Assembly (NCBI GenBank): GCA_964386355.1
Contig: CAYLQQ010000001.1
Span: forward strand, 76,256 to 140,255
Origin: an uncultured Pseudomonadales bacterium
GTDB taxonomy: Bacteria; Patescibacteriota; Microgenomatia; UBA1400; UBA1449
Reading direction: 5' to 3'
Length of the DNA: 64,000 nucleotides
The position numbers and the translations under genes are program-made. The notes beneath the pieces are model-generated. The model did no database searches and was not told where the DNA came from. It worked only from the letters and a program-made list of their open reading frames with translations. Positions within the stretch are counted from its first letter, which is position 1, and every line of letters starts with the position of its first letter. Positions 1 to 62,138 of this stretch are shown piece by piece.

Positions 1-3000
1 AATAATCATAAGTAAACTTGCGACCTTGGTATTCTCCTGATTGAACTTCCAATCCGCTTCCTATTGAACCATTTTCACCCAGCGAAGGAGCATTTCCTTC
101 ATTCCAACTGGCTGCACCCCCGCCTGTAATAAAACTTTCCCCAGAAGGGAGTATACTTTGAATCGAAGCAGAACCTAAAGTCGTATCAGTATGTACATTA
201 CCAGACCCAATCTGCCACCAAGGAACAGCTGGGGTGGGTGGAGGAAAAGCGCTGACTCCAAAATCAGCTCTGCCTGAACCTGCAGATGACGCCCATGCAG
301 TCTTATGTGGTAGTTCTGATAATGTATAAGCTGTGGTTTGGTTGTAAGCTATTGCTGTCTTTGGACTTGTAGAATAATACGGACTTATACTTCTTACGTA
401 GGCACTATGATTTTCAAATAAATCAAATTTTAGATATACCTCATAGTTACCATATGATCCACTCGGAAGTGGTAAGACATAGTACCCACCATACCCAGTG
501 TGATCACTACTGATTCCACTATCCGTTGATAAGTAAAACTTCCATGAATCAGTATCGATTCTTTCATCTGCCTCGAAAGTTCCATTTTTATTAATGTCAA
601 CTTGGTAAGGCCAGCAACATTCTGACATCCCGCTATCCAAAGGATAGGACTTACAAGTTCCTATGGGATTTGTACCGCAATCACAACCACCTGTTGATCC
701 CCGACGGCAATCCTGGAAGCCATTCTGGTTTCGATCGTACCAGACGTAGCCGACAATTTGAGCTGGAGTTACCCCAACAGCTACATCCTTACTGATCTCA
801 CTAGCCGCACATCCTATCTTATCGACTTTAAGGGTAACTTTCTTTGTCCCTTCAGTACTGTACCGTTTAGAGCTATTTTGGGTTGTAGCATCCACTGTCC
901 CGTCCGTTTCAAAATCCCACCACCATTTCTCAGGCCCATTTGTCGAAGTATCAGTAAATATAAACGTAGTAGACGTAGTACCAGATGCAGATACAGGTTC
1001 GATGGAAAAATCAGCTACAGGACAAGCTATAGCCGAAGTTATAGCCATATCTTTTGTACACGTTGCTGTTAAGCCATTTGAAACTACATCAAGTGATATC
1101 GTCCACGTGCCTGTATTGGGGAAATTGACGTCAGTGAATGGATTGGCATTGTAGGTGGCTGGAGTTCCATAGGGGTTTTGCCAATTTAATATATATGTCC
1201 CATTACCTCCTCCAAGAATAGCATTAAAGGTGAATATTGTATTAGTGTTTCCTGATGACGGAGTACTGGTAATTTGACAATATGGGGCTTCTGCCACACA
1301 TGCAGTCCCAACTCGCTTGTATCCAAGTTTGCATCCATATTCACACTTTGCGCTTGTATCTGTATCTTGGTAATTCCATTGAGTTCCCTCTAGCACTGGT
1401 ACCGTATTCTCATCAGCACCATACACTTCATATGTGCCCTCAGCCTCACCATATTTTGGGAGAACACCTCCGCATGTAACCGGAACACACGCAGATCCGT
1501 CCCACAAGTAACCATCCAGACACTCGTATTCACACTTAGTAGTGGTACAGTCTGTTTTTACTGACCAGTTTGTTACTCCAGTGAGGCCGGTATCATCTCC
1601 ACTGCATTGCTGAGCATATGGGTCTGTAGACGGCGTCCCACCGCAGATGTACTTGTACTGGCATTTAGTGGCAGTATCAGATACTGATAATGTCCAATCT
1701 GTAGCTGAAGTCAGATCGTTTGATTCTTCAGTGTCATACGCCTGTGCTCCTGAGGGGATTGTCCCACCACAGACGTACTTGTACTGGCATTTAGTGGCAG
1801 TATCAGTAGCTGAGAATGTCCAGTCCGTGCCCAACGGAGGATCTTCAGACTCTTCGCGATCGTGAGCTTGCGCCCCCCAAGGGATCGTGTCACCGCACGT
1901 AGGAATGATACATGCAGACCCATCCCAAACGTACCCAGTTTTACACTTGAAATGCCACCATAGATCTACGTACCCTGATGCTGGGGTTGTAAAGGTAGCA
2001 CTGGAACTATTTACCAGATAAGGAGCATAATTAGTTTCAGTTGTTCCTCCATTACTATGACAAGCAATCGAATTATCCGGGCATTTACTATACCAAACGT
2101 CCATATTCAAGTTAGCAGGAACCGCAACTGAACACGTTGTAGATGAATTTGCTTTTAAGGTAGTGAACGCATAACTGTTGGCTGTAGAAGTAAGGCTGCT
2201 CGTACCATCCTCACACGTTACCGTTAATCCACTAATGGGAGAACCGCGATGTCCAATCGGATCACGCATCTGTTTGAAACCCTGAACAGTGATCGCGTTA
2301 ACACAGGTACATGTACAGTTGGGACTTACACAAGCTGTACCGTTCCAATACGGCGGACCCCCCGGTTCACATACCCCGCTTGCGATACCCTTTGCTCTGG
2401 TACACGCTATTGAACCAGCCCACATTTTACCAGCCCCACAAGAGCTTATAATCCCAGCACTTACCTGACTGTTGCAGTATAAGTTTATTGCATCTTTATT
2501 AGATTCAGTATAATTGCACGCATCACCACACCTGCGTACGTACTCACATTTTGCTGCTGTACAGGAAGTAACTTCAGTATAGTTTTTATCAGTGGTCACA
2601 TCAGTGGCGTCAGCTGTATCACCAGCATCCTTACACAGGACGTACTTAGCAGTATCTCCGGGCGGATTTTGACACGACGCCTCTCTCCCCATCGTAAATC
2701 CCAAGCCGAACATAATGTCATACGGACAGCCATCACATTGCTCATGTGTAAACGTTGCACTACACCCAGATCCACTTATGTCAGTATTCGTTTTGTAATT
2801 ATGTAAATTCCAGGTAGTATTTGAACAATGATACCCACATCCTGAGGGGATAGATAATGTAGCTGTAGTTTCACCGGTAAATTTATTACTCTCAAAGTAC
2901 GGCCCTTCTGAAGGTGTTTGCCAATTTACGCCTCCTTTCGTATGAGATATATTTACTCCTATTCTGTTTGCACAGCTTACCGTGCCGGGACCCCAGCGTA

Positions 3001-3449
3001 ACGTACCGGTGTTATATGCAAATACTGTACCGTTAAATGCTGTATCAACTAGTTTATTGTGCACCGCAACACCCTCGGCAAAGAAGGTTTTGTTTGAGTC
3101 AACTGAAATATTATAAACCTGGGTTGGTTTGAGAACTTTCTCTATAGATGTGACTATATCAGGGACAAGCGTTTTATCTTGCTGTATGTAGATCCGGTCG
3201 CCAATCAATATATTTTGTGCCTGGGTGAAGTTTGTATACTCTGATTCTACTTGTACCGAATTGGTTTGTGTGCGGTTTCCAATTAAACCAAGACCCACAA
3301 CAACAAACCCCGCAATGAATACTAAAGCGAGTATGATAAAACCTGGATTAACATGCGTACGGTTTTTATCCAACATAAGAGGTAGATTATGCTTGTTTGT
3401 TGAAGTTTGTCTCGTACTCATACTGGTCTTTTTGAGATTGGGTAGCATA
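1..3449 (-). CDS. Giant secreted Cys-rich surface protein, 5' partial (runs off window start); >1149 aa. N-terminal signal anchor, tandem ~47-aa Cys repeats (KCQYKYxCGG), PKD-like domain (WWDFETDGT), C-terminal domain paralogous to that of 6036..10823.
   Basis: Hand translation of the minus strand from ATG at 3449 stays open to position 1. The ORF track shows only short spurious plus-strand ORFs here. TM helix GFIILALVFIAGFVVVGLGLIG near the N-terminus. Motifs WWQIGSGNV and IQSILPSGESFITGGGAASWNEG match WWQVGIGNV and IQSIVPSGESLIESGGSATWNEG in the 1595-aa protein. Confidence 0.6.
1620..1870 (-). repeat. Intragenic tandem DNA repeat (2 near-identical ~140-bp units) encoding the repeated Cys module ...TDWT(F/L)S(A/V)(T/S)DTATKCQYKY(V/I)CGGT...
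   Basis: gtacttgtactggcatttagtggcagtatcag occurs at ~1651 and ~1783, with extended flanking similarity. Confidence 0.7.
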
Positions 3450-3572
3450 TTTTTTAGTCAATCAGCGATTGGGATGTGTTATCATATTATGTACCTGTTC
3501 CATATAAGCTCAAAATGGCAACAAAGCTGGTAATACCCCAGTTTCTGTCACAGCAAGATTTTTCAAATAGTA

Positions 3573-4232
3573 TTACCTCAACCCAATATCAATCTTAAAC
3601 TCTTTCCACCCATACTTCACATATGTCGTATAGCGATACCAAAGATTCTTAAGTTTTTGGGACATTGTTTTTGGAGGTTGGGGATTTGTACCGGTAAAAA
3701 TTGGGTGTTCCGCAGTAACGTTAATCTCTTTTCCTGAGGCAGTTTTGATAGTGAAGTATCCTTCGCTCGTAACAGAATATCGTTGTGTTACTGTATCAGC
3801 GCTTACTGAACCTGTTTTATCGTCAAAACTCATTACCTGATCTCCTATCTTTAATGCTTCAATCGCAAGCTCTCCACCCGGAGTTGCTACCTTGGTACCG
3901 GGGAGGAAACAACCACCGCCACAACAAGGAGCCCCTCCTGTATTAACATGCCAATAACGATATCTGCCCCAATGCCCTAACACGCCTCCTACAGAGCGTA
4001 GTTCACAAGGTCTATCCCAGAACATGTCTATGAGGGAATAAGCTGTCACTGACCCTGTGGGGTGTGCCATACAACCAGAATTATCATCTGCATAACACCT
4101 ATCTTCATCTGTAATTAGATTACATGTCTCTTGCGCATGTATAGCATGAACAAATTGATTGAAAAACCACAACCATAATATGACAATAAAACCAAAACGC
4201 AAACATTTACGTTTCATATTTATCAATATCAA
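3573..4232 (-). CDS. Secreted Hint/Hog-domain protein (Hedgehog/bacterial-intein-like autoprocessing domain). Signal peptide, ~80-aa 6-Cys N-terminal module, then a GGG|CFLPGTKV...TAEHPIFT Hint core.
   Basis: Hint motif A (G-CF-x-GT-x-V) and motif B (T-x-x-H-P-x-x-T) read directly. N-terminus MKRKCLRFGFIVILWLWFFNQFVHA is signal-like. The true start may be the M at 4217. Confidence 0.6.
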   Translation of the reverse strand: MILINMKRKCLRFGFIVILWLWFFNQFVHAIHAQETCNLITDEDRCYADDNSGCMAHPTGSVTAYSLIDMFWDRPCELRSVGGVLGHWGRYRYWHVNTGGAPCCGGGCFLPGTKVATPGGELAIEALKIGDQVMSFDDKTGSVSADTVTQRYSVTSEGYFTIKTASGKEINVTAEHPIFTGTNPQPPKTMSQKLKNLWYRYTTYVKYGWKEFKIDIGLR

Positions 4233-4243
4233 ATATTACTAAG

Positions 4244-4762
4244 CTATTTAGTTACGTAGTCAGTTATGAATTTACCATGTTCTTTACTAATCTGTGATAC
4301 TATTATGGAATCACCAATTTTAAAATCATCTAGAGTTAATTGTATTATCTTGTTCTTATAAGGCATATCCGGTTCCATTGATATACTACTCTCACTCTCT
4401 TCTGGGGGTTCATAAATCGAGGTGTTAAACTCCGTCTTATTTGTAACGTATACATCAATAAAATCATTAGGTGTCTCGAAGCTGCCTAATCTAATTCTCC
4501 CCGTCTTTAAATCAATATCAATAATGATTCCTTTTAAAATAGTATATATTCTATTATCTGTACCAATAGTAAATTGATATATTCTGCCATTTTTAATATT
4601 CTGGGTATTGACAGGACCGGTTTGAACCTCAACTCCGTTAATCGGTTGTGCATTATTTTTTGTACTATTTAAGCTAGTCACCATTTTATATCCAATATAA
4701 ATAAAAAATGTTATCGTAATTACTAGAAGTATTATAAAAATAGTAGATAAAAGATTTCTCAT
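4244..4762 (-). CDS. Membrane-anchored hypothetical protein (N-terminal TM, extracytoplasmic domain)
   Basis: 172-aa ORF. N-terminal hydrophobic helix IFIILLVITITFFIYIGY. Confidence 0.45.
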   Translation of the reverse strand: MRNLLSTIFIILLVITITFFIYIGYKMVTSLNSTKNNAQPINGVEVQTGPVNTQNIKNGRIYQFTIGTDNRIYTILKGIIIDIDLKTGRIRLGSFETPNDFIDVYVTNKTEFNTSIYEPPEESESSISMEPDMPYKNKIIQLTLDDFKIGDSIIVSQISKEHGKFITDYVTK

Positions 4763-4868
4763 TGATAAATAATCCTACGTTTTATATATAACATCCAGTA
4801 TACAATAATTAATACTTGGAAGTTCTATGAAGTTATAATGGAGCAATCAGCTATTAAACTAGCTCCTG

Positions 4869-5138
4869 TTATTGATAGACATTAATTGAAAGATTGCCTT
4901 CCAATTTAGATATTTCGTGGATTTCACCCATAATAAACTTACTTTCTGGCTTGTTTTTATCAAGCTGATATACCTGATTTTGGTCAATAAATTCCTGAAT
5001 TGTTTTTGAAGATTCTGATGTTTGCTCTGCTGATCTTGATTTAGAGCCAATCAATGTAAGGATAGTAATGGTCAGTACTATTCCCGCTATAAGAATAGCG
5101 ATCGCGGTCAATAGTTTCATGACACTATCGTAGCACAC
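4869..5138 (-). CDS. Small membrane-anchored hypothetical protein
   Basis: 89-aa ORF with TM LLTAIAILIAGIVLTITILTLIG. The overlapping ORF 4859..5050 in another frame is taken as spurious. Confidence 0.35.
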   Translation of the reverse strand: MCYDSVMKLLTAIAILIAGIVLTITILTLIGSKSRSAEQTSESSKTIQEFIDQNQVYQLDKNKPESKFIMGEIHEISKLEGNLSINVYQ

Positions 5139-5194
5139 TCACTGTATATTTTCTGGGTGGTTTATTGCATGCCCGGTGGGTCTTTTCCTTGAGA

Positions 5195-5779
5195 CTATCT
5201 ATTAGCTATCGCCAATTGAAGGGTACTTTCCAAACGGCACAAATTTCTTGCATCTACATTACGGGCATCTACATGTACCTGTTCAAAGACCCATTCTTTA
5301 CCCCGATTGACTTTACCAGTAAAATCAGCACTGGTTAAGCTTCGACTGGCAGCATCATACCTAAATTGACAGATCATAGTGCCATCTCTACCAAGAAACC
5401 TGCTCATATAATACTGCCCCATTGCGTCATTTCCTGTAGGTCCATCCATATAAGATACCGTTGTTTCTGATCCATCTTTCCTTACAACTCTAACGTCAGT
5501 AGGGAATTGTGAACCTGATTCTCCAGCTACAGTCACAGGCAAGAATTTTTCCTCTATTTGGGTACCATCAGAATCTACGACACATACCTGATACCCTAAA
5601 CTGGCGCCTCCTTTACCCCTTATAACTGAACAACTCACCCGCTCTTTCGTTCTGCCAGCCTCTGCATTCTTGGGTTCAGTCAAAGCGTTAAAACCTACAG
5701 CAGCCAAACTGGCTTTACAAGCTACCCGGCCAGCATCGATAAAAAATTGTCTTCTACTTTTTGCTTCTGTTTGTGACAT
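5195..5779 (-). CDS. Secreted hypothetical protein with twin-arginine (Tat)-like signal peptide
   Basis: N-terminus SRRQFFIDAGRVACKASLAAVGFNALTEPKNAEA: RRxFF motif, hydrophobic h-region, AxA-like site. Flanked by AT-rich intergenic DNA. Confidence 0.5.
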   Translation of the reverse strand: MSQTEAKSRRQFFIDAGRVACKASLAAVGFNALTEPKNAEAGRTKERVSCSVIRGKGGASLGYQVCVVDSDGTQIEEKFLPVTVAGESGSQFPTDVRVVRKDGSETTVSYMDGPTGNDAMGQYYMSRFLGRDGTMICQFRYDAASRSLTSADFTGKVNRGKEWVFEQVHVDARNVDARNLCRLESTLQLAIANR

Positions 5780-6035
5780 ATGGATAAATAATTTTTATAA
5801 CCTATATCATTGTCCTATATAAAGTATAGCACAAGCTGTCAAGAGTATACATACATATATGGATTCCATTAAATTAATCCATATTTATTAGTCTTTCTTC
5901 TATTATTGTTATTGTAAATATGCCATAACATCAAAATCATCTTAATCCGATAGTAAGTCAGTATGCACTTTTGATACAGAAAAGTATGGGAAAATTTATT
6001 TGCTTTTGTTGAATTAGAATTGTAATGGTTTTAGT

Positions 6036-9000
6036 TTAGTGGTTGACTTCACTCCAGACATACTGGTAGATTTTGAAGGCTTTGAGGTCTGACTCGGTAG
6101 TCTTGAGCGTATAGATCATATCTGCGTTGTGTTCAAACTTTTCCGCCGGTGTCTGGTTGTCAGCTCCCTGCATATGCCTCCAGAGATTCACCCCTCTCCA
6201 GCCGATCAACCCACCACGGATAAGTAGACGGTTGGCATCAACATCATCTTTGTATGAGCTTGTTGTAATATACTCATCCGCAATATAAAAGCCATCAAGT
6301 TGTGCTACTCCATCGCTTATGTAGATATTACCCTTCTGCCCTCCCGTACTATCCTGATTTCCCGATATAAGGACAAAGATGCCTCCTTTGTCAGTTATGA
6401 TGTCACCTAAGATATCCACCCTACCGCGGTACAGGATCGCTATTTGGCGAGAACCCAAATTAGTTACGCCGCTCGTGCTCCCGATTACCAGGGGAAATTG
6501 GTCAGCTTCAATCTCATAGATCCCGTTTGGCCACGATGCGATGTTTGCAACATCAGCTTTACTTTTCCCATACGTCGTATAGTCAGCCAGTTTATCCTGC
6601 CAAAACGCATAATTATAGGTATCCTTTTTGACATAGGTTCCTGCCTGAGCCTCCAGAGCATAGTCACCAAAATCTCCTCCCTGATCTGCATTATAATCTA
6701 TACCACCCTCGTTCCAGGTGGCTGATCCACCAGATTCAATCAGGCTCTCACCGCTGGGAACAATGCTCTGTATAGCCCTTTCTGTGCCTCCTCCGTAGTT
6801 TGAGAATACATTTCCGATACCAACCTGCCACCAAGCATCAGGGTAATTACCGCCGATAAGTTCAGAGTGGCAATTGTTAAAATTATATTCCCCGATAATC
6901 CTCCTGGTCATATAAAGGCTCAGGCCAGCTGCATCAAAATGGCAAACTTGTGTTTCAGAAGGTAAGTTTGGGTTGCCTTCAACTAATAGTTCCGGATTAG
7001 AACCGCTGCAGGTAAACCTCCGGTATTTTGTTTCTGATACATCAGCGTAGCCGGCAGCACTAAAACCAGTCACCATATCAGGAAAGGCAAATGTGACATC
7101 CAATGGATAGGTTTGCTCGGGTGGGCTGTACGTTTCTTCAGTATCACTATAGGGTGCTTGGTAAAAAATAAAGTTACAATTCTCTCCGCATCCAGACGCT
7201 TGTGATTGGTTTTCGTACTGCATTTTTTTATCCTGTGTTGCATCAGTTGCTGTTGTTAACAAGGGTTTCATATAGTAATTACCACCAATCTGTATGACAG
7301 CTCCACATACATCAGTCCCGGCATAGCTGTTGCTTTGGATACTGACTGAATATGATGAGCCTCCATTTATTGAGGTAGAGAAATACCCTGTATTATCAGT
7401 AATGAGTGGGGTAATTTTTATTGTATCATCTACAAGTACTGTAATACCCTCTATTCCGGGACCATCAGAGGAGTTACTTCGCACATAACCAGCTACAATA
7501 TAGGGTGTGACAAAGCCGATATTACAATTGGAAACTACAGGTGAAGATCGATAAACTGTTCCGCTTGCATCAGAAAAGTGCAAATTAGCTGTCAAGGGAA
7601 TCGTATAGTTTTTGTTCTCATTATATGTATGTGTTGCAATAACACTATCCATGCTAGGAGGTGGCGATACAGTTTGTGTGTCTGACCCATCTCCAAAATC
7701 AAGAGTAAGCGAGTAAACCTGTTCCCTACCGTTGACAGCCGCATTCTTAAATGTCGCGGCAAAGGGGAATGTGCTTGGAGAGATTGATACAAAATCGTTT
7801 ATACGGCAACTCGATTTTGGTAATGGGTACATTTGGAAATCACAACTGCTTGTGGCACATCCTCCAACTTGCGTTTGGTTGACATAACTCAATTTTCTGT
7901 CCAGATACGTTAAAGGAGGAAACTGGTAGCCCGATATTGACTGGCTGGGAATCGTGATTGAATAGGTATCACCTTCACATAAATCCAAAACCGTAGAATA
8001 GTTACCGCCACTGTCAGTCTTTAAACTGTACGTTTGTCCAGTTTTATCATGCTTGACCACAACATTTACATCTTTAATTACTGGTTTTGTCCCGACTAGT
8101 AACCCCTCTATATCATACCGACTACGAATATTACCTTTGATTTGCGTTTTTTGACATATAGTACCGACAGTAACTGCAGTATCACAGGTAGCTTGCCTGC
8201 CCCCATCATCGCTAACTGTAAGCACAGCTGATTTAATTCCTGAAGTTGTGTAGCTCGTTGTTACACTTGCACTAGTAAGGCTGCTATACCCTGTTGCTGA
8301 ACTATCTAATAGCCAATTAAAGCGTACAGTTCCTATTCCTCCCTGAGCGTCTCCCTGATGCGTAAAAATGTCGCTTCCAGTATTACCGCTTGTGGGATTT
8401 GAGCTTGCGTTACATGTCAAATTTGGAACAGTATTTACTGTGACTGTCGTATCACAACTGGCTTTTTTACCAGAGCTGTCTTGAATATTTAGGATTGCTT
8501 TTTTAGAACCGCCAGTTGAGTATTTTGTAGCTACACTAGAACTAGTCAGCACTCCACTCTCCAGGGCTGAATTATCAAGTGTCCAACTATACGTCACTGC
8601 GCCAATTTGGCCCGAAACCTCACTCAGGTGAGTAAATATGGTGTTGTTTGGATCACCGCTTAGTGGATTTGATGAGGCTTTGCAAGTCAATACTGCACCA
8701 TCAATCACAGTAACTGTCGTATCACAAGTAGCTTGCCGACCCAAGCTATCCCTGACTGTAAGGATGGCTTTTTTTGACCCTGAAGTTGAGTACTTTGTGC
8801 TTACATTGGATCCAGTTAGCGATCCTGGTTCTAATGCTGAACTATCAAGCGTCCAGTTATAGCTTACTGAACCAGACTGTCCTTGAACAGTGCCCTGGTG
8901 TATAAAAATTGTACTACCTGTAGTGCCTTCGATTTGATCAGAGGTGGCTGTACACGTTAATGCAGTTGCATTACACGATGAGCGTACTTCATTACTTTTT

Positions 9001-10823
9001 GTCACAAACCGGCTACATTCACCGCTTTTACCGCACACCCAAACCTGATAGTCGTATTCCTGCCCAAGACTAATAGTGGTGTCCGTATAGGTTACTGTAC
9101 TGCCAACTGCTCCTGTATATGAAACCGGAGAAAGTGAAGTATATGTAGCTGATCCAGCATTTTTTCGGTATACAACATAGCCACCTTTAGCATCAGCAGT
9201 GTGTGTCCAAGTGATAGATATTCTACTTGGATTAGATGCATCCGCTAACAAACACACAGCTGAAATAGTTATCCCCCTGGGAAGAATATCAATATCTTTC
9301 TCACACTTTTGACCAAACCACGCACCGACTTTGGGACTTTCGACAAGTGACCGCCAATACAATTTATAGGTGTTCCCAACTGTAGCAACATCAGTTGGAG
9401 CCAACATACTTACATTCCACGATACCGGATTGCCCGGCGAAATTGTCTGTGATGAAGTAAGCTCACGCCGCATTCCAGGCGAAGGAGTAAAGCAAAACAT
9501 TTGTGGCTGGCTGGAAACCCAGACACTTCCTTGCCAGCCTCCTGGAGTCCAGCCATTTCCTGTATCGCATGAAGCATTGCCCAGCTTATATCCTAACGCA
9601 CTTGTCCAATTAGATGGATTTGGAGCTCCTGAGCCTCCCGTATTGGTCAGACCAAGCGTCCCCGAAAAAATAGAGCCAAGCGTTACACTTGATGGAATCC
9701 CTGAGGAGTTACAGGTTGAGTTATCTACATTAAAATTTTCGTGACAATTGTAGTTGTAAACGGAACTATCAGGATTTGTTCCGGATGTATTTACCCCATA
9801 TTGATCTTGACCATATGCAGCTATAAGCATTTTGTTATTATTGGTAAGTGCAAAATCATAACAAGCCTTCGGAATTTGCCCTGTATAGCTAATGGTAACT
9901 GACTTAGCATTTAAACCTGTATTCGCGCTGTCTGGTATCGGAGTAAAATTGGAAACTGATGTTTGGCAGGAGAATTCACCTGAAGTAATGTTTGCTGTTG
10001 TTGAACTAAGTTGTGCTGTAAGAGTAATGGTTTGATTTGGATCAGTCCATGTAGATGGGCTGATAGATATACTTGTGTCTGTCTGATCCTCACCCACACA
10101 TACCGGAGGAGTAAATGGTTTCTTACATGTGAGAGTAAAATTGTCGGGCCGATCAGAACCATCCCACCATTTGATTAAGGATGAAGTGCTATCAACCGTA
10201 CCTGAACTATTTATCCCTTTTACTTTTGCTGTAAAACTGTGGGCAACATCATCCTGATACGAAGATGGCAGTTGCACCCGAAAGCGGTGATTAGAGTATC
10301 CGCCACAGGATACTGGTGATTCAAAATTATCATCAGCCAACACAGTACTTATAAGCTTCGCCCCTTCATATATCTCTACGCTGAGTGGCTGACTGTATTT
10401 ATCAGGATCGCACGTCCAACCAGATACGGTACAGTTGTTGGGATCTGCTTGTACCTCAAAATGGGCATCATTTCTGCCAACAGGGTTTTGTCCAGATGGC
10501 AGGCCGCTACAGTTTAAAATACCACTTCCATCATATACTGTAGTACAGGTCTTTGTACCACTGCAGCTTGGGTCACATCCGCAACTTTTTACCTCACCAC
10601 AAGTTAATCCTTCAGCCGGACAGTAGGCAGATTCAGCTGATTTGATTCCGCAGTTACTACTTGTTGGACTTGTACCACAGTCACAGGTACATGAACATGA
10701 ATACGCATACACATCTTGAGGATTTAACAGTTTGAATGTAAATAAACTTCCAATAAGTAAAATAAAACAAATGTTATTGAGTATGAAGTGATAAATAGAT
10801 TTCAAAGAATACATAGTATGCAC
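6036..10823 (-). CDS. Giant (1595 aa) secreted Cys-rich surface protein with three tandem PKD/Ig-like repeats, a PKD domain (LDFGDGSD), a carboxypeptidase-regulatory-like fold, and a C-terminal ~300-aa domain shared with the 1..3449 protein
   Basis: Long ORF. Signal anchor ICFILLIGSLFTF. N-terminal Cys cluster CSCTCDCGTSP...; three repeats ending ...ATCDTTVTV. Confidence 0.7.
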   Translation of the reverse strand: MHTMYSLKSIYHFILNNICFILLIGSLFTFKLLNPQDVYAYSCSCTCDCGTSPTSSNCGIKSAESAYCPAEGLTCGEVKSCGCDPSCSGTKTCTTVYDGSGILNCSGLPSGQNPVGRNDAHFEVQADPNNCTVSGWTCDPDKYSQPLSVEIYEGAKLISTVLADDNFESPVSCGGYSNHRFRVQLPSSYQDDVAHSFTAKVKGINSSGTVDSTSSLIKWWDGSDRPDNFTLTCKKPFTPPVCVGEDQTDTSISISPSTWTDPNQTITLTAQLSSTTANITSGEFSCQTSVSNFTPIPDSANTGLNAKSVTISYTGQIPKACYDFALTNNNKMLIAAYGQDQYGVNTSGTNPDSSVYNYNCHENFNVDNSTCNSSGIPSSVTLGSIFSGTLGLTNTGGSGAPNPSNWTSALGYKLGNASCDTGNGWTPGGWQGSVWVSSQPQMFCFTPSPGMRRELTSSQTISPGNPVSWNVSMLAPTDVATVGNTYKLYWRSLVESPKVGAWFGQKCEKDIDILPRGITISAVCLLADASNPSRISITWTHTADAKGGYVVYRKNAGSATYTSLSPVSYTGAVGSTVTYTDTTISLGQEYDYQVWVCGKSGECSRFVTKSNEVRSSCNATALTCTATSDQIEGTTGSTIFIHQGTVQGQSGSVSYNWTLDSSALEPGSLTGSNVSTKYSTSGSKKAILTVRDSLGRQATCDTTVTVIDGAVLTCKASSNPLSGDPNNTIFTHLSEVSGQIGAVTYSWTLDNSALESGVLTSSSVATKYSTGGSKKAILNIQDSSGKKASCDTTVTVNTVPNLTCNASSNPTSGNTGSDIFTHQGDAQGGIGTVRFNWLLDSSATGYSSLTSASVTTSYTTSGIKSAVLTVSDDGGRQATCDTAVTVGTICQKTQIKGNIRSRYDIEGLLVGTKPVIKDVNVVVKHDKTGQTYSLKTDSGGNYSTVLDLCEGDTYSITIPSQSISGYQFPPLTYLDRKLSYVNQTQVGGCATSSCDFQMYPLPKSSCRINDFVSISPSTFPFAATFKNAAVNGREQVYSLTLDFGDGSDTQTVSPPPSMDSVIATHTYNENKNYTIPLTANLHFSDASGTVYRSSPVVSNCNIGFVTPYIVAGYVRSNSSDGPGIEGITVLVDDTIKITPLITDNTGYFSTSINGGSSYSVSIQSNSYAGTDVCGAVIQIGGNYYMKPLLTTATDATQDKKMQYENQSQASGCGENCNFIFYQAPYSDTEETYSPPEQTYPLDVTFAFPDMVTGFSAAGYADVSETKYRRFTCSGSNPELLVEGNPNLPSETQVCHFDAAGLSLYMTRRIIGEYNFNNCHSELIGGNYPDAWWQVGIGNVFSNYGGGTERAIQSIVPSGESLIESGGSATWNEGGIDYNADQGGDFGDYALEAQAGTYVKKDTYNYAFWQDKLADYTTYGKSKADVANIASWPNGIYEIEADQFPLVIGSTSGVTNLGSRQIAILYRGRVDILGDIITDKGGIFVLISGNQDSTGGQKGNIYISDGVAQLDGFYIADEYITTSSYKDDVDANRLLIRGGLIGWRGVNLWRHMQGADNQTPAEKFEHNADMIYTLKTTESDLKAFKIYQYVWSEVNH
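8150..8990 (-). repeat. Three tandem ~280-bp intragenic repeats encoding PKD/Ig-like modules
   Basis: Repeated DNA blocks (gtcgtatcacaa... units). Protein repeats ...STKYSTSGSKKAILTVRDSLGRQATCDTTVTV occur x3. Confidence 0.65.
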
Positions 10824-10887
10824 AAATATTTATGTATTTACTATTATTGATTGGCAGAATTTTGTCAATAAGAATGCATAAATATTC

Positions 10888-11982
10888 CTAGCGCAGTCCC
10901 CCAACAACCTTTACCTTTGCAAGTAGTTTTTCATCATCTAAAACCTTACCACACCCGCGGACTACGCAGGTTAGTGGATCATCAGCCACCCATACAGGCA
11001 TTTTAGTCTCTTCTGCCAGGAGCTTATCCAAACCTGGAAGTAATGCTCCTCCGCCAGCAAGCACAATACCATTTTTAATGATATCGGCAACAAGCTCAGG
11101 TGGCGTTTCTTCCAAGGTTTCTTGTGTTGCTGAGATAATCTGGCTAACTATCGGGGCAATGGCTTCACGGATTTCCTCGCTATTAACCTTTATAGAGGAA
11201 GGCAGGCCTTTTTCCATAGATCTACCTCGAACGACATGTTGTTTTTCTTTATCAAATGGATACGCCGAACCGATAGCAAGTTTCACTTCTTCAGCTGTAA
11301 GCAATCCGATGATAAGGCCATATTTTAAGCGCATGTAGGCAATAATTGCCTCATCAAACTCATCTCCAGCAGTTCTCAAACAACGCTCAACAACGATGCC
11401 TCCCAGAGAAATAATTGAAATTTCGGTTGTACCGCCACCAATATCAATAATCAGCTGGCCTTGCGGGTCTGTGACTGCAATACCTGCTCCAATTGCTGCA
11501 GCCATTGGCTCCTCAATCAAATAAGCCTGCCGAGCACCAGCCGAAAGCGCGGCTGACTGAACAGCTCTTCGTTCAACTTCTGTCACACCAGATGGAATAC
11601 CAATCACCACCCGAGGCCGAAGGACTTTTGGAAAAACTGAGGGTATCTCGTGGATCTTGCGGATATAGTTCCTGACCATGGCAGATGTTGCATCAAAATC
11701 TGAGATCACCCCATCCCGCAAAGGCCTAACTGCTTCAATAGTTTGAGGTGTTTTGCCAAGCATTTTTTTAGCTTCGCTACCTATTGCAATAACTTTACCC
11801 ACATTACTACCTTGAACATTTACCTTTTTTTGGCGGGCTACTACTGAGGGTTCACGTATCATGATCCCCCTGCCTTTAATGTACACAAGAGTATTTGAGG
11901 TACCTAGATCGATACCCAGATCGTATGTAAAAAAATCCCAGAGATTATGTGACAAGTGTTGGGTACAAGTGGCGGGTAACAA
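10888..11982 (-). CDS. mreB: Rod-shape-determining protein MreB (actin-like ATPase), paralog 1
   Basis: GIDLGTSNTLVY phosphate-1 motif; DIGGGTTE; MreB-like length and gestalt. Confidence 0.85.
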   Translation of the reverse strand: MLPATCTQHLSHNLWDFFTYDLGIDLGTSNTLVYIKGRGIMIREPSVVARQKKVNVQGSNVGKVIAIGSEAKKMLGKTPQTIEAVRPLRDGVISDFDATSAMVRNYIRKIHEIPSVFPKVLRPRVVIGIPSGVTEVERRAVQSAALSAGARQAYLIEEPMAAAIGAGIAVTDPQGQLIIDIGGGTTEISIISLGGIVVERCLRTAGDEFDEAIIAYMRLKYGLIIGLLTAEEVKLAIGSAYPFDKEKQHVVRGRSMEKGLPSSIKVNSEEIREAIAPIVSQIISATQETLEETPPELVADIIKNGIVLAGGGALLPGLDKLLAEETKMPVWVADDPLTCVVRGCGKVLDDEKLLAKVKVVGGLR

Positions 11983-12068
11983 GATACACCGACCGTGTTT
12001 ACCCTGCCATTGTTTTACTATTCTACCATTTGGGATCTAAGTGGTGTGGGGTATACTAAAGAAATTGT

Positions 12069-14609
12069 TTGATGGTTACAAAGCGTTTATGTATAACTTT
12101 TACCATCAAGCGTCTATCCATGAAGACCTCATATATGCATCGACTGGAAAACAGTACCGAACATAATAATAGAACTGAGATTATTCCTACCCTCATCCAC
12201 TATTCGTATCTGCTCCTCTTTTTCTTAACACCTCTTCTGATCAGTCTTAAAAGTACCGAATTGTTTGAGTTTCCTAAAATGTTATTTGTATACGTCATGA
12301 CTGCATTCATAACAGGGCTATGGATACTTGATATTGGGATAAGCGGTAAGCTGGTTTGGAAAAGATCGTGGCTAGATAGTATCTTTGGTGCAGTTTTGTT
12401 AAGCCAACTGGTATCTTCTCTCTATACTATGGACCGCTATACAAGTTTTTTCGGTTATTATTCGAGGTTTCATGGAGGCTTCTGGTCAATCCTGAGTTAT
12501 ATCATTTTAGCTTGGATATTCAAGAATTATGGTAGTAAAAAATGGGTACAGGATGTCATCATAAGTATGCTGGGAAGCGCAAGTCTGGTCAGTCTGTATG
12601 CTATTGGAGAGCATTTTGGTATCGATGCCCATGTGTGGGTACAGGATGTCCAAAACCGTGTTTTTTCTACCCTGGGACAACCAAATTGGCTCGGTGCATG
12701 GCTTGGCGCTCTATTGCCATTTGCCTACCTGTGGTATTTACGACCACCAAAGTCATTTTGGCCAACGGTTATTAGCCTCAATGCTATCACCGTATCAATA
12801 GGCTATGCCCTTACATACCTTCTTACTAACAATCCTTTGCCTGTCGGAGGAGGTGACTTTCTGCTTTTTATAATCATATACGGGACTCTAAATGGACTCG
12901 TGATGTGGAAAGCTAAGTGGTTGCATGAGCGATTTGCAGGCTTGCAGCGGTTCAACTTTTTGTTTCTTATAATTCTTTTACAATTTGCGATTTTGTTTAC
13001 AAAATCCCGTTCGGGAATCATGGCATTAGCTATAAGTACCATACTATTTTTATTACATGAAGCTTTTTCAAACAAAAAAATTAAATTGCTGCTTCCTTTA
13101 TTACTTACTTCCTGCTTCCTAGTTTTGTTAATTGGTACGGAATGGACCCCATCTCTGTCAAAATTGTTAGGCAAGAGTAATCAGGTAATTAAAAATCCAT
13201 TGGTTACAACTACCAATACATTGGGTATCACAGACAGTACTGATATCCGTAAAGTGGTCTGGCAGGGAGCTACGACAGTTTGGCAAAACTATCCCCTGTT
13301 TGGCTCTGGTACAGAAACGTTTGCCTATAGCTATTACAATTTCCGCCCCAAAGAACATAACCTCAACTCAGAGTGGGACTTTTTATATAACAAAGCCCAC
13401 AATGAATATCTGAATTTGCTTGCAAATAATGGCTTGGTTGGGACTGCCGCTATGCTTTCTATAGTGGTTGCACTTGTATGGCTCTGCCTAAAATACAATA
13501 CAAGAACTTGGACATATCTCGCCCTATTTACAATGCTGTTTGCAGGTTTTGGCTACCTTTTATCCCCGCACACGATACAAACGATCATTAATAAACTTCT
13601 GATATACCCCCCGCTCATCCTACCGCTTGGCGCTAGTCTACTGGGAGCTGTGCTTCTGGTCTTTATAGCCCAAAGAATGCATACAAATGAGCAAAATGAT
13701 TCAAATAGCGGATTGGAAAGCGCTGTACTTGCTAGTATTGTCAGTATCGTCATTACAAATTTTTATGGATTTTCAGTCGTAACGGTTGCCCTTATCTTTT
13801 TTATGTTACCTGTTTTGCTTTTGTTGTATCAGCAAGAACCACTCCCCAGGCATGAACTTACCATCGCAAAGGCAAGTTCATTGGATAACCCCTCAGTCCT
13901 GTCCTGGATCGGTGGTGGAGTTGGGCTTGTGCTATTTGGCGTTGTATCAATCTATACAGTAAATTACTACAGAGCTGATCTTGCATACAACTACTCACAA
14001 AGCTATCTGCAAGCGGGGGACGTTTTACAAGCTGATACCCAAATCAGCACTGCCCTTAGGCTACACCCCGCCAATGCAAACTATTGGTTGCATAAGGGCT
14101 TAGTAGATGCCCAAACTGCATTTATGGTCAACTATAAAGATGCATCGGATAGTTCAGGACTTGTAACTCACTACACCAAATCTGCTGTTGAATTTACCCA
14201 GCAAGCACTCATACAGAATCCAGTTCATGTCAATCTCTATAAAAGCGCTGCCCGGGTATATATAACCCTTGGTTTGATCGACCCAACATATACCCAATTT
14301 GCTATCAAAACCTTAGAACTTGGCTCTAAACTATCACCTACTGATCCGCAACTTCCTACAAATACTGCACTCCTCTATCAGCAAAACGGAGACTATGATA
14401 AAGCTTTACAACTCTACCAGAAAGCTATCGAACTAAAACCGGATTATGGAATGGCTCGGTCACTTTTGGCTCAAATGTATGAAGAGAAAAAGGACTATCA
14501 AAAAGCTATCGAAGCATACCAAGAATTGTATGAAGTGATTAGACCCCAGGATCCTCGGGTGGCTTCACATGTGGCTGAATTGAGGAAGAAAATTACAAAT
14601 ACCCCTTAG
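12069..14609 (+). CDS. Polytopic membrane protein with O-antigen ligase-like (Wzy_C) domain and C-terminal TPR repeats
   Basis: Many TM helices; FTKSRSGIMALAISTILF (Wzy_C-like); C-terminal TPR-like ALQLYQKAIELKPDYGMARSLLAQMYEEKKDYQKAIEAYQ. True start may be downstream. Confidence 0.6.
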   Translation: MMVTKRLCITFTIKRLSMKTSYMHRLENSTEHNNRTEIIPTLIHYSYLLLFFLTPLLISLKSTELFEFPKMLFVYVMTAFITGLWILDIGISGKLVWKRSWLDSIFGAVLLSQLVSSLYTMDRYTSFFGYYSRFHGGFWSILSYIILAWIFKNYGSKKWVQDVIISMLGSASLVSLYAIGEHFGIDAHVWVQDVQNRVFSTLGQPNWLGAWLGALLPFAYLWYLRPPKSFWPTVISLNAITVSIGYALTYLLTNNPLPVGGGDFLLFIIIYGTLNGLVMWKAKWLHERFAGLQRFNFLFLIILLQFAILFTKSRSGIMALAISTILFLLHEAFSNKKIKLLLPLLLTSCFLVLLIGTEWTPSLSKLLGKSNQVIKNPLVTTTNTLGITDSTDIRKVVWQGATTVWQNYPLFGSGTETFAYSYYNFRPKEHNLNSEWDFLYNKAHNEYLNLLANNGLVGTAAMLSIVVALVWLCLKYNTRTWTYLALFTMLFAGFGYLLSPHTIQTIINKLLIYPPLILPLGASLLGAVLLVFIAQRMHTNEQNDSNSGLESAVLASIVSIVITNFYGFSVVTVALIFFMLPVLLLLYQQEPLPRHELTIAKASSLDNPSVLSWIGGGVGLVLFGVVSIYTVNYYRADLAYNYSQSYLQAGDVLQADTQISTALRLHPANANYWLHKGLVDAQTAFMVNYKDASDSSGLVTHYTKSAVEFTQQALIQNPVHVNLYKSAARVYITLGLIDPTYTQFAIKTLELGSKLSPTDPQLPTNTALLYQQNGDYDKALQLYQKAIELKPDYGMARSLLAQMYEEKKDYQKAIEAYQELYEVIRPQDPRVASHVAELRKKITNTP

Positions 14610-39547: not shown

Positions 39548-40792
39548 TTGGACATTACCCCCACGCGTTCTGACTTTGTACCTTCATCAAGACAGCCCAA
39601 TCTTCATAACCTAAATTACATAAGTTTTATTGCTCTCATTTCATTAAACTCAATAAGATTGCCCTTCCATAGTACAATTACCAGTATGACTAGCCCAGAA
39701 GAACACAGACATTTGTTGAATATAATAGAATCTCAGCACGTAGTCAGTCTTGAGAGGGGTAAGACTGCCAAAGTAACGACAGTCACCTTCCCGCCTACAT
39801 CGAGAATTTCACTCGTTTGGGATGAGGCTTTGACCGAGCATGGTATAAAAACTGAGCCGGGAAGCTTGCTCATTGATCAAAAAGCTACTGCAACACTGAT
39901 TGGCCGTCCTGCCGGTATACATCCCAGTACTGCTATGACTGAATACGAAAATTCCTATGTTTTCCCAGGTAATCACTTTGGATGGCAGTATGGGGCGTAT
40001 TTTATAAATGATGGGCACTTGATTGGCTTACCAGATGATCCTACAAATAGAATCCTCAATTTTCTTATCCGCAACCAGCAGGGTGAGTGGGATGACAGAC
40101 ATCTCGAGCTCCGGAATGGTTCTCTAGCTAGAGAAACTGATATATCAGATATCGCACATGGATTAAGCGGCCCATTTATTGTCAGAAATGGTGAAGAGCA
40201 ACCTGTCAGAGAGTTGTTGAGTAATCCCCGCCTGTTAGCTGATCCCCGCAATGTGCTTGATTTTTCCAACACTAACCAGTTTAATTTTGTTAATGCTGAG
40301 GAAAAGCGAGAGTTTTGGCAACTGATCCGAAAAGCTTTACCATACAACCCTTCCCTGTTGAGTTGGCTTTGGGATAGAGAAATACCAGTTGAGTATAATC
40401 TTCAGAGTATCAGTGATGTTGAGTATGCAAAGCTGCGGTACCTAATTGCCAAGTCAAGAATGGATCACCTAACTCTGGATAGAGATGATGAGCAAATACT
40501 TATGGAGATAAGTCGTACTCTACCTTATCAACGCATGCCTCTCATGGCTATCGGAATAAATAAAGATAACTCTTGGTTTGTCATAGCTGCAGACGGAAGA
40601 TCATCGGATAGTGCAGGGCTGACTATCACAGAATTAGCACAGCAATGTGTCTTAAAAGGAGCTTATCATGCCATATTAACTGCGGGTGGTGGAGATGTAT
40701 TTATTGGAAATAAAACGAAAGGAAAATTTAAAACAGTAAACTCTCCATCTAATCAGTTACGACCGTATCCATTGTGGATAAAAGTATATTAA
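39548..40792 (+). CDS. Phosphodiester glycosidase (NAGPA/DUF2233)-domain protein
   Basis: C-terminal AIGINKDNSWFVIAADGRSSDSAGLTITELAQQCVLKGAYHAILTAGGGDVFIG. Probable start at the internal MTSPEE (~39686). Confidence 0.5.
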   Translation: MDITPTRSDFVPSSRQPNLHNLNYISFIALISLNSIRLPFHSTITSMTSPEEHRHLLNIIESQHVVSLERGKTAKVTTVTFPPTSRISLVWDEALTEHGIKTEPGSLLIDQKATATLIGRPAGIHPSTAMTEYENSYVFPGNHFGWQYGAYFINDGHLIGLPDDPTNRILNFLIRNQQGEWDDRHLELRNGSLARETDISDIAHGLSGPFIVRNGEEQPVRELLSNPRLLADPRNVLDFSNTNQFNFVNAEEKREFWQLIRKALPYNPSLLSWLWDREIPVEYNLQSISDVEYAKLRYLIAKSRMDHLTLDRDDEQILMEISRTLPYQRMPLMAIGINKDNSWFVIAADGRSSDSAGLTITELAQQCVLKGAYHAILTAGGGDVFIGNKTKGKFKTVNSPSNQLRPYPLWIKVY

Positions 40793-40813
40793 TGCAATTA
40801 ATACATTACAGGA

Positions 40814-42055
40814 TTACCTCCTAACAAATAAAATTGCATTAGGAATTGCCCTGCCCGGACCGGCTTTATATCCCCCGTACCACAGAGCGGTTGAGCCACC
40901 GCTATCCAAATTCAAGGCGTCTTCAAACCCAAGTGCCTTGTGGGCATACGCAGCCTCGGCAACCGTGGCATTGTAAACCACCCCAATATAGACAGTGTTT
41001 CCCTTGTGGGAAACAAAACTGCGGGTGCCTTTACTTCCTTTTTTGGGGTCTCCATCGCCCCCAAATGCAATATTTCCTCCCGATAGCGTCATCGGCTGGT
41101 TGGCGATCATACTATCAATGCCAGTATCTCTGCCCCAGTCTAAAGATCTACCGACAAACCGTACCCATGAACCGCCAAATACAACCGCCGGAACTGTACT
41201 ATAGACATTATTATCTGAGTTGAAGTAGGCTTTATTTTTGTTCATCAACAAGGTATCAAACGAGTTGGTCTTACCCGCACAAGAGGGGTATGAAGCCGGG
41301 CAAAAGTATGATCCGTTTATGCCTGCATATGCTCCATTTCTCGATACGTAATCACCAAGCGCTAGCACAGGACAATTATCCCTACAGTCGGAATCTGAAG
41401 CTGTATCTACGATTACCTTAGTTGAGCTCAAATCGCCTGCCACCATCGAAACCAGAAATTCGCCCACTTCCGTGCTCACTTTTTGGCTGGAATAGCCTGA
41501 TCCGGGAGGTGTATTTGAACTGGGAGCTGATGCCGGGATGTTGAAGCTGGCTACCAGCCTATCCTGTTCAGTCTGAATTTTTTTAGATAAATTAGTCAGC
41601 TCAGCTGATGCAGTAGAGTAGTCACGTTTTGCAAGTATTGTCAATGTTTTACTAAATGCTGCATCCAATTCCGCGGTTTTTGATGTCCCCTCTCTCAGTT
41701 TAACCAGCTTTTCGTAGACTGTAACCGCCTGCTGATACGTATTTTCAATTTCTGTGATAGTTGACTGTAGCTTGTCATTACGTATTTTCTGATCCTCATT
41801 CTCAAGTATTTCAAGCTGGGCAGATACTGAGGCGATTTGCGCTGACATTGAGGCAATCTGCAGTTGTAATATACCCTTATCCTCAGTAAGCTGCTTGACC
41901 TGTAGGTAGTTACGCATTATTTCCTTCTGTTGAGACCTTCCAAGAAACAACACATAATATGACCCAAATCCAAGCAGCATGGTTACTGCCAATATCGAAA
42001 TTGCAAAGATAAGATGATTTCGTATTGCATGTGCTATGGGCAGCGAAAGCTTCAT
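40814..42055 (-). CDS. Membrane-anchored coiled-coil protein with C-terminal phosphodiester glycosidase (NAGPA-like) domain
   Basis: TM LIFAISILAVTMLLGFGSYYVLFL; heptad-rich segment; C-terminal ALNLDSGGSTALWYGGY. Confidence 0.55.
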   Translation of the reverse strand: MKLSLPIAHAIRNHLIFAISILAVTMLLGFGSYYVLFLGRSQQKEIMRNYLQVKQLTEDKGILQLQIASMSAQIASVSAQLEILENEDQKIRNDKLQSTITEIENTYQQAVTVYEKLVKLREGTSKTAELDAAFSKTLTILAKRDYSTASAELTNLSKKIQTEQDRLVASFNIPASAPSSNTPPGSGYSSQKVSTEVGEFLVSMVAGDLSSTKVIVDTASDSDCRDNCPVLALGDYVSRNGAYAGINGSYFCPASYPSCAGKTNSFDTLLMNKNKAYFNSDNNVYSTVPAVVFGGSWVRFVGRSLDWGRDTGIDSMIANQPMTLSGGNIAFGGDGDPKKGSKGTRSFVSHKGNTVYIGVVYNATVAEAAYAHKALGFEDALNLDSGGSTALWYGGYKAGPGRAIPNAILFVRR

Positions 42056-42175
42056 ATAACGAACCAAAGTAGAGTACGTTTGTTTTATTTATTAAATGTA
42101 GCATATTTTTAATCAGTTTCTGTGTTATACTCTTGGCCATGTATAAATAATATTAATTAAAATTTAATTGTATAT

Positions 42176-60022: not shown

Positions 60023-60042
60023 ATCAAACTTTTGATCAATAC

Positions 60043-62118: not shown

Positions 62119-62138
62119 GATTCAGAATAGCAAATTTG

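Follow-up and report, generated by a model that had tools for sequence, protein, structure and literature searches.

What is a protein with a Hint (Hedgehog/intein) domain doing beside two giant cysteine-rich surface proteins in the genome of a bacterium that is probably an ultra-small member of Patescibacteria? The question is raised by a 64,000-nt stretch of DNA (positions 76,256 to 140,255 of contig CAYLQQ010000001.1, assembly GCA_964386355.1; the window, at its full length, in what follows), where positions 1–10823 carry six minus-strand genes, in the order of rising coordinate A, P2, P3, P4, P5 and B. The preliminary description of this region, made from the sequence alone, presented A and B as giant paralogues and the four small genes between them as encoding secreted or membrane proteins, with P2 as a protein of the Hedgehog/Hint autoprocessing type. 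All six open reading frames (ORFs) are indeed present where they had been placed, A and B do exhibit an N-terminal hydrophobic segment, PKD matches and a high Cys content, P5 does possess a twin-arginine signal, and P3 and P4 are anchored by a transmembrane (TM) segment. P2, however, is not a complete Hint/Hog protein but carries only the N-terminal half of the domain; the C-terminal half is found near the start of A. We predict that the two halves together are one type-A bacterial intein-like (BIL) Hint domain, split over two genes.

P2 comprises a signal peptide, a 74-aa Cys-rich head, the Hint-N half and a 34-aa basic tail, while A comprises a cytoplasmic tail, a TM anchor, the Hint-C half, a Cys-rich body with PKD repeats and a C-terminal domain (CTD) shared with B. 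The Pfam model PT-HINT (137 positions) is divided between the two products, with aa 115–180 of P2 corresponding to positions 2–71 and aa 69–134 of A to positions 65–136. The Pfam Hint match of P2 has an E-value of 2e-9, and PF01079 is matched over positions 9–98 of 213 only. In NCBIfam, the whole 83-position profile TIGR01445 (intein_Nterm) matches aa 108–180 of P2 (30.8 bits, cut-off 24.5) and TIGR01443 (intein_Cterm) matches aa 111–131 of A (17.1 bits, cut-off 15.6); the Hint-C half of A also corresponds to positions 75–135 of a local Hint hidden Markov model. Joined in sequence, the two halves can be aligned over their entire length with the solved BIL domain 2lwy (E=1.2e-8), the sole large gap being the junction, and the AlphaFold2 (AF2) model of the fused halves (predicted local distance difference test, pLDDT, 89.7) has 2lwy as its best match in the PDB (TM-score 0.81/0.88, root mean square deviation 2.3 Å), followed by Tetrahymena BIL2 and then by mini-inteins. 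The catalytic residues are intact, i.e. Cys1 (Cys108 of P2), the T-x-x-H motif and His130-Asn131 of A; the domain ends with Val-His-Asn131, and the +1 residue is Lys132, not a Cys, Ser or Thr nucleophile. The assignment to type-A BILs follows from this combination of Cys1, T-x-x-H, a C-terminal His-Asn and no +1 nucleophile. Since the Hint domain is divided between P2 and A, the two proteins are likely to form one functional unit, and P2 can no longer be regarded as an independent Hog-like neighbour.

Relatives with an unbroken domain were found through the shared CTD. An exhaustive phmmer search with the last 283 aa of B against 1.84 billion cluster representatives revealed at least 200 clusters (50% identity) at E<=1e-3, 16 of them at E<=1e-10; the family statistics given here rest on 150 listed representatives of the 200 CTD matches. 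Among these 150, ten Hint domains are present in nine proteins other than A, and a BIL Hint thus lies between head and body in a minority of the CTD-family members. Eight Hints are contiguous (in P0075, P0117, P0039, P0142, P0026, P0044 and, as two in tandem, P0086) and directly follow a signal peptide and a Cys-rich peptide of 25–45 aa; the head of P2 occupies the position of this peptide in P0075, P0117, P0039, P0086 and P0142. The fused halves from the window are colinear with the contiguous relatives and 42% identical to the Hint of P0075. Over the 10 aligned Hints, T69, H72 and P73 of block B, a G-D pair and the terminal H-N-K are invariant, so that Lys is found at +1 in 10/10. In P0086, which comes from a Logan contig, the two Hints (aa 65–211 and 248–395) are about 36 residues apart and both end with HNK. 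P0026 and P0044 were considered as a second type of split and rejected, as on their contigs the reading frame extends beyond the mis-called starts and includes Cys1 and a signal peptide. We take the ancestral form to be a contiguous Hint-bearing gene, which was broken inside the Hint into P2 and A.

An equivalent pair of genes exists in a second lineage, on a JGI metagenome contig (L005). Its protein P0008 (1562 aa) starts with a basic tail and a TM helix, at the position equivalent to the anchor of A, and continues with a Hint-C half that runs from YPNFTQVKNVKIGDKLYIQKD to VFNLSVDNTQTYFAESLAVHN and is followed by Lys. Positions 3–323 of the same contig code for the C-terminal 107 aa of a homologue of P2 (58% identity, E=2e-39) with an equivalent tail, ...LWFNFQTNIKYGWEEVRGAVGI, and stop codon. 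A second copy of the tail, WFDFQTNIKYGWEEAKKAVGIVQLF, also ends with a stop codon, 56 nt before the ATG of P0008, and between the two copies (region 3–1661) there are an AAA_14-DUF4143 gene and a 52-nt scaffold gap of Ns. The two tail-coding copies are identical at 38/40 nt and then diverge; the interruption may reflect a mobile element that inserted where the gene is broken, or strain variants that were joined during scaffolding. GTGACAGARAC and a CATAAT hexamer occur in both of the spacers that separate a Hint-N from a Hint-C gene (window 3486–3560, L005 1606–1661), and may represent a conserved promoter or regulatory element of the downstream gene, as far as two sequences can suggest. A single promoter-like site is present in the spacer of the window (3513–3486), where such sites are not above chance, and scans of the region for promoters and terminators gave nothing above chance. 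The two split lineages are well diverged (58% identity for P2 and about 40% for the N-terminus of A), yet all ORFs are intact. Given an equivalent two-gene pair with intact ORFs in two diverged lineages, the split appears to be conserved, an assembly error is ruled out and a fresh pseudogene is unlikely; we regard the existence of a conserved split Hint as very probable.

How could such a divided domain work? The tail of A preceding the TM anchor is basic (35 residues, net charge +5 over aa 1–33), and the positive-inside rule suggests an N-in, C-out orientation. We propose that P2 is exported by Sec and loses its signal peptide, while A would be inserted N-in/C-out, with its Hint-C half about 10 residues outside the membrane, and that the two halves would reassemble into the HINT fold on the outer side of the membrane. 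There Cys108 of P2 would undergo an N-S acyl shift to a thioester and Asn131 of A would cyclise, so that the 1205-aa ectodomain of A, with Lys132 as its new start, would be cut from the membrane anchor. The freed amine of Lys132 could attack the thioester, by which the 74-aa Cys-rich head of P2 would be ligated to the ectodomain, by the route of type-A BILs (PMC4031507). The ligated product would have the head-body-CTD architecture that is native in B, P0005 and P0007, all without a Hint. Release may be the dominant outcome, as published BILs mostly cleave: type-A BILs need no +1 nucleophile to cleave or even to splice (PMC4031507), and cleavage outweighs ligation (PMC4031507, PMC7765530), which weighs against the ligation step. 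The best explanation of the locus, and in our judgement a fairly probable one, is that a Patescibacteria-type adhesin family includes a Hint gene that was broken into P2 and A, whose products would react outside the cell; for the full mechanism, step by step, we would claim an even chance or slightly better. A bolder version, in which the Hint-N protein and the anchored Hint-C adhesin combine release with transfer of the head onto Lys, as a two-gene ligation switch, independent of a nucleophile, that would set whether the surface protein is tethered or shed, with Lys+1 as the acyl acceptor (through its alpha- or epsilon-amine), is put forward only tentatively and is the less probable one. Tetrahymena BIL2 resolves its thioester via the epsilon-amine of a lysine, yielding an isopeptide (PMC8616854); this chemistry would set an example for the invariant Lys+1 acting in a similar way, but is not evidence that it does.

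Several observations speak against the proposed reaction or limit its scope. The split has been seen in two lineages only, and in L005 the contig end and the scaffold gap break into the Hint-N gene, so that Cys1 lies outside the visible part and the gene order depends partly on scaffolding. The block-F His of the contiguous relatives (T-H-T-Y-F) is replaced by Lys in the window and by Gln in L005, which could weaken Asn cyclisation. We infer the signal peptide, the TM topology and the extracellular site of the reaction from the sequence. Finally, the fold matches of the CTD are weak (TM-score 0.33–0.44).

The replacement of the block-F His in both split lineages favours another possibility, namely docking without chemistry, in which the halves would bind to each other but catalysis has been lost, and P2 would be a non-covalent Cys-rich subunit on the anchored A. 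That A gained a stable TM anchor, which is kept in P0008, points in the same direction, as it would be odd if the only fate of the anchor were its removal. However, the loss of the block-F His is not diagnostic, since this residue also varies among the contiguous Hints (Asn in P0026), and the domain has kept Cys1, Thr and His of block B, its His-Asn end and Lys at +1, so we consider docking without chemistry unlikely.

Could P2 and A instead be two parts of a dedicated multi-component attachment or polymorphic-toxin-like system, in which two giants cooperate with four small secreted proteins? The preliminary description had noted a resemblance to such loci. The surroundings of the CTD genes lend this idea some support: in the window and the related loci (197 kb) there are exactly five twin-arginine ORFs, and each of them precedes a CTD gene of the same strand by 0.3–5 kb. 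Genes for N-terminally TM-anchored proteins of 147–200 aa are found directly upstream of CTD genes in L004, L006, L009 and L010, often overlapping their start by 4–13 nt, and P3 would hold the same position in the window if P2 and A are counted as one ancestral gene. In L005, too, the CTD paralogues are paired. On the other hand, the neighbours share no sequence beyond signal peptides: the five twin-arginine ORFs have none in common outside the signal peptide, the small TM proteins show no detectable mutual homology, and comparison with the related loci revealed no homologue of P3, P4 or P5, which also lack a Pfam or NCBIfam family match (a significant one in the case of P4). Toxin and immunity domains are absent; the Hint is located towards the N-terminus of A (aa 62–131 of 1336), and at the C-terminus there is a conserved CTD, not a variable, polymorphic toxin. 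The gene immediately upstream of B is mreB, not a partner gene. A multi-component system is therefore an explanation to which we give still less credit than to docking. The likeness to polymorphic toxins has to be dropped, whereas the attachment-like character of the locus holds as far as the adhesin-like paralogues and the recurrence of neighbour gene types (Tat-signal and small TM genes) in related loci are concerned, and fails at the level of sequence homology of P3–P5. These three proteins were dropped as candidates for homology-conserved partners; they are probably accessory envelope proteins that are not demonstrably part of a conserved system. That genes for Tat-signal and small bitopic proteins recur beside the CTD genes may point to a route dedicated to the maturation or anchoring of the CTD proteins, but like all recurrent neighbour gene types they are leads only.

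A further alternative is gene decay, in which P2 and the Hint-C stub of A would be relics, A an ordinary anchored surface protein and P2 either non-functional or on its way to being lost. It could be invoked to account for the search of the word index with P2, which returned P2 itself and no close relative beyond it, for the rarity of the split (2/10 Hint-bearing family representatives) and for the AAA_14-DUF4143 gene adjoining the break in L005. Decay is hard to reconcile with the equal break, the P2 tail and stop codon and the tail-TM-Hint-C start in two lineages as far diverged as these, with intact ORFs and catalytic residues kept in all visible parts (Cys1 of L005 lying outside the view), and we judge it improbable. 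An assembly or sequencing artefact, i.e. a frameshift or chimera mimicking a split, might be suspected in a metagenome-derived contig with repeats of the kind that break assemblies, but it is hardly credible, as the halves are 124 nt apart, which is not a single frameshift, A begins with a start codon, tail and TM segment of its own, 12.4 kb of the sequence recur unchanged in a separate Logan assembly, and an unrelated JGI metagenome contains the equivalent architecture. The Logan assembly in question (run SRR11845627) is 100% identical to positions 1777–14217 of the window, with the P2/A junction included, and stops at 1777, inside the tandem repeat of the Cys module of A. P2 and A lie in different reading frames, the frame of A being open from 3457 with its ATG at 3448. 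An alternative genetic code was considered and dropped, as the long ORFs all read cleanly in table 11. The coordinates of all features are collected in Table 1.

Table 1. Features of the locus and of the related loci (window coordinates unless a locus is named)
Feature	Coordinates	Strand	Remarks
Gene A	2..3448	-	1149 aa within the window, cut by the window edge; full product P0006, 1336 aa
CTD of A, first 84 aa	2..253	-	from aa 1066; remainder past the window edge
Tandem Cys module in A	1635..1885	-	two copies of 126 nt (42 aa); Tandem Repeats Finder, 76% matches, score 286
A Hint-C half	3056..3247	-	aa 68-131, SEYTNFTQAQNILIGD...VYNISVDSNKTFFAEGVAVHN
Predicted scissile bond Asn131/Lys132 of A	Asn131 codon 3058-3056, Lys132 codon 3055-3053	-	
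A TM anchor	3278..3343	-	aa 36-57, GFIILALVFIAGFVVVGLGLIG; 22 aa, mean Kyte-Doolittle hydropathy 3.05
A/P2 spacer	3449..3572	-	124 nt, from P2 stop codon to A start
Gene P2	3573..4232	-	219 aa from TTG; 214 aa from ATG at 4217 (as called)
P2 C-terminal tail	3576..3677	-	PPKTMSQKLKNLWYRYTTYVKYGWKEFKIDIGLR; conserved in L005
P2 Hint-N half	3678..3911	-	aa 108-185; starts with Cys108 (CFLPGTKV), block B T-A-E-H-P
P2 Cys-rich head	3912..4133	-	aa 34-107, 7 Cys; predicted N-extein
Gene P3	4244..4762	-	172 aa, N-terminal TM anchor, directly upstream of P2
Gene P4	4869..5138	-	89 aa, N-terminal TM anchor
Gene P5	5195..5779	-	194 aa, twin-arginine signal SRRQFF, then hydrophobic stretch
Gene B	6036..10823	-	1595 aa from GTG; gene caller: ATG at 10814, 1592 aa
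CTD of B	6039..6881	-	aa 1315-1595; Cys-free, ends with WSEVNH
Twin-arginine ORFs	window 5195-5779; L004 6625-8088; L006 2069-3652, 5553-6233; L011 4647-6143		
Small TM genes	L004 8136-8675; L006 6297-6899; L009 7570-8013; L010 7468-8004; window 4244-4762 (P3)		

The sequences support the view that A and B are adhesin-like, Cys-rich paralogues, secreted or anchored, from a small-genome lineage. B comprises a signal peptide (with the hydrophobic segment at aa 9–33), a Cys-rich head, a body with PKD and CarboxypepD_reg-like modules and the CTD, and has no Hint. PKD_4 is matched with E-values of 2.4e-7 in A and 6.7e-15 in B, and the Pfam matches of A include also PT-HINT and Intein_splicing; a weak match to EAD10 in A was rejected, as it rests merely on the string IGDRIYIQ. 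There are 50 Cys residues (4.4%) in the window-visible part of A and 47 (2.9%) in B. P0005 and P0007 are relatives that have their head and body in common with B and are also Hint-free, and the heads and bodies are too variable to define the point at which a Hint would have been inserted. A search for loci with the N-terminus of A and P0008 gave nothing among genome contigs and, among metagenome contigs, only an unrelated EAD10/NTPase locus (L002); an exact look-up of full-length A returned no record.

The CTDs of A and B are 49% identical over the 78 aa comparable within the window (BLASTP, E=5e-13) and 42% over the whole domain, so the common C-terminal motif reported in the preliminary description is confirmed, although the domain, said to span about 300 aa, measures about 265–283 aa. 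According to a local profile, 117 of the listed representatives contain a complete CTD of 251–309 aa (mean 276), which ends 0–9 residues from the protein C-terminus in every case and exhibits a terminal W-x-E-V-x-P in 104/117, the family consensus being WxEVAP-COOH. Cys residues make up 0.3% of the CTD vs. 5.6% of the rest of the proteins. An N-terminal hydrophobic signal is present in 80/105 full-length members and is followed within 100 residues by 6 or more Cys in 67/80 of these, and the bodies contain VWA, PKD, Big_2, fn3 or CarboxypepD_reg modules. Members of the family consist of a signal peptide, a Cys-rich head, a variable body of Ig-, PKD- or VWA-type modules and a conserved Cys-free β-solenoid CTD. 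The source names seen for the family (L004, P0030 and P0158) are all "Patescibacteria group bacterium". A 3.2-kb contig (L003, CAYXFC010000127.1) with a B-like CTD gene comes from a record labelled as an uncultured Pseudomonadales metagenome-assembled genome and is probably mis-binned.

The family is visible only by exhaustive HMMER search: in the word index the CTD of B found no match and the CTD profile 6 fragments only, the broad CTD alignment proved too diverse for finding loci, and a tighter set of sequences led to two. The CTD of B matches no Pfam or NCBIfam model, and a sequence-profile search of the PDB with the CTD found no match. The AF2 model built from 26 family sequences (pLDDT 84.7, predicted TM-score 0.84) is a β-solenoid with flanking helices, for which Foldseek, proposed at the outset as a check, returned only loose solenoid matches, with the DUF3494 ice-binding solenoids on top (E=9e-4), followed by ComZ (E=0.087) and tapirins (E>=1.2). 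DUF7305 gives sub-threshold matches in 6/26 CTDs (best E=0.004; P0013 scores 15.3 bits vs. a gathering threshold of 27) and none in B, and our literature search found no paper mentioning DUF7305. No sortase-, exosortase- or T9SS-type (type IX secretion system) model in Pfam or NCBIfam matches full-length A or B, and the hydropathy of B reveals no C-terminal hydrophobic segment. With no model match, no C-terminal TM helix and loose fold matches only, the CTD does not look like any known sorting signal (LPXTG, PEP-CTERM, exosortase/archaeosortase tags or the T9SS CTD). Such signals consist of a short motif with a TM helix and a basic tail, or of a β-sandwich of about 80 aa, whereas this CTD is a solenoid of about 275 aa. 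The preliminary description had allowed that the locus might reduce to ordinary surface proteins around a common sorting domain; a good deal of this is borne out, as the CTD is family-wide (at least 200 clusters) and no homologues of P3–P5 were detected in the related loci, but a known sorting signal was not matched. The CTD might anchor or dock the proteins to some component of the envelope, which is a guess. The family appears to be unnamed. A pilin type of CTD protein was considered and rejected, the prepilin motif being present in 0/150 representatives.

A gene for a Wzy_C (O-antigen-ligase-like) and TPR membrane protein is found a few kb from CTD genes in the window (12069–14609), L010 (14177–16192) and L011 (11844–13805), and the CTD gene of L010 and L011 is bordered by genes for LysM-M23 peptidases. 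In the window mreB abuts B, and in L005 a PBP2-like gene follows the CTD pair. In L004, from a Patescibacteria genome, the CTD gene is followed (11311–14256) by three prepilin-like genes (N_methyl motif, one with PA14) and a VWA protein, and in L009 PilM/PilO genes lie divergently upstream of the CTD gene. Farther along the window (39548–42067 and 58592–63890) there are two divergent NAGPA (phosphodiester glycosidase) paralogues and a run of large minus-strand fn3/CARDB genes, possibly for additional surface proteins; the window as a whole contains seven scattered tRNA genes.

If our prediction is true, trans-reactions of Hint domains would also serve outside the cell, in the processing or release of surface proteins, and P2 and A would offer protein engineers a naturally evolved starting point for cleavage or ligation in trans that needs no +1 nucleophile. 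They would also open a way to study how giant Cys-rich adhesins are mounted, matured or shed by ultra-small bacteria that probably depend on a host. The β-solenoid CTD, with its at least 200 clusters at 50% identity, merits a family definition of its own.

At the level of the giant proteins the locus is ordinary, since giant Cys-rich extracellular proteins are already known in genomes of the candidate phyla radiation (PMC4736985). Those of Peribacteria (Anantharaman et al. 2016, PMC4736985) are described in the cysteine-related passages of that paper as large, very Cys-rich, equipped with signal peptides, often clustered and proposed to mediate attachment, much like our family; the paper defines no common C-terminal domain, and these passages mention no Hint processing. 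The CTD, modelled as a β-solenoid with a flanking helix, has its loose fold matches in DUF3494, ComZ and tapirins, but the TM-scores stay low, and in sequence it belongs neither to these families nor to DUF7305. Hedgehog/Hog-Hint proteins share with P2 the Hint fold, the N-terminal Cys, secretion and the PF01079 match, but P2 has no sterol-recognition region and ends 34 aa after its Hint-N half, and the nearest relatives of the P2/A Hint are BILs and inteins, not Hog domains. BIL2 of the Tetrahymena BUBL proteins (6Y75, 6TMM) is the second-best fold match (TM-score 0.81), but it is eukaryotic, cytoplasmic and contiguous, with ubiquitin-like flanks.

The split inteins and fractured genes (DnaE, gp41-1, NrdJ-1; PMC2677866) are alike in having Hint halves on separate, adjacent genes, in a break that, as in P2/A, falls into the loop after block B and, in the case of fractured genes, in a free-standing gene between the halves, as in L005. 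The naturally split Hints in the literature consulted are classical inteins in cytoplasmic enzymes, which need Cys, Ser or Thr at the ligation site (PMC4031507, PMC2677866). P2/A differ from them in the absence of a +1 nucleophile, which makes the canonical branched-ester route impossible, and in being exported envelope proteins and not cytoplasmic enzymes of DNA metabolism; moreover, the contiguous homologues of P2/A keep the Hint, the C-half of A is preceded by a TM anchor, and the intervening gene of L005 (AAA_14-DUF4143) is not a known homing endonuclease.

Type-A BIL domains (Amitai 2003, Dassa 2004) are the closest in chemistry. 2LWY from C. thermocellum, the best match of the P2/A Hint in both sequence and fold, shares Cys1, the block-B T-x-x-H, His-Asn and the lack of Cys, Ser or Thr at +1. 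The source paper of 2LWY (Aranko 2013) concerns trans-splicing by this domain, and the split BIL used there was reportedly engineered. Our literature search found no naturally split BIL, which, the coverage being incomplete, is weak negative evidence. Both the known BILs and P2/A lie in variable secreted bacterial proteins (PMC4031507, PMC7765530), but the known BILs are contiguous, while the domain of P2/A is spread over two genes, its N-half carrying a signal peptide and its C-half a TM anchor, and its family invariably has Lys at +1. The split Hint is thus nearest to the type-A BILs in its chemistry and to the split inteins and fractured genes in its gene layout, and it is set apart from all these systems by being exported and tethered to the membrane.

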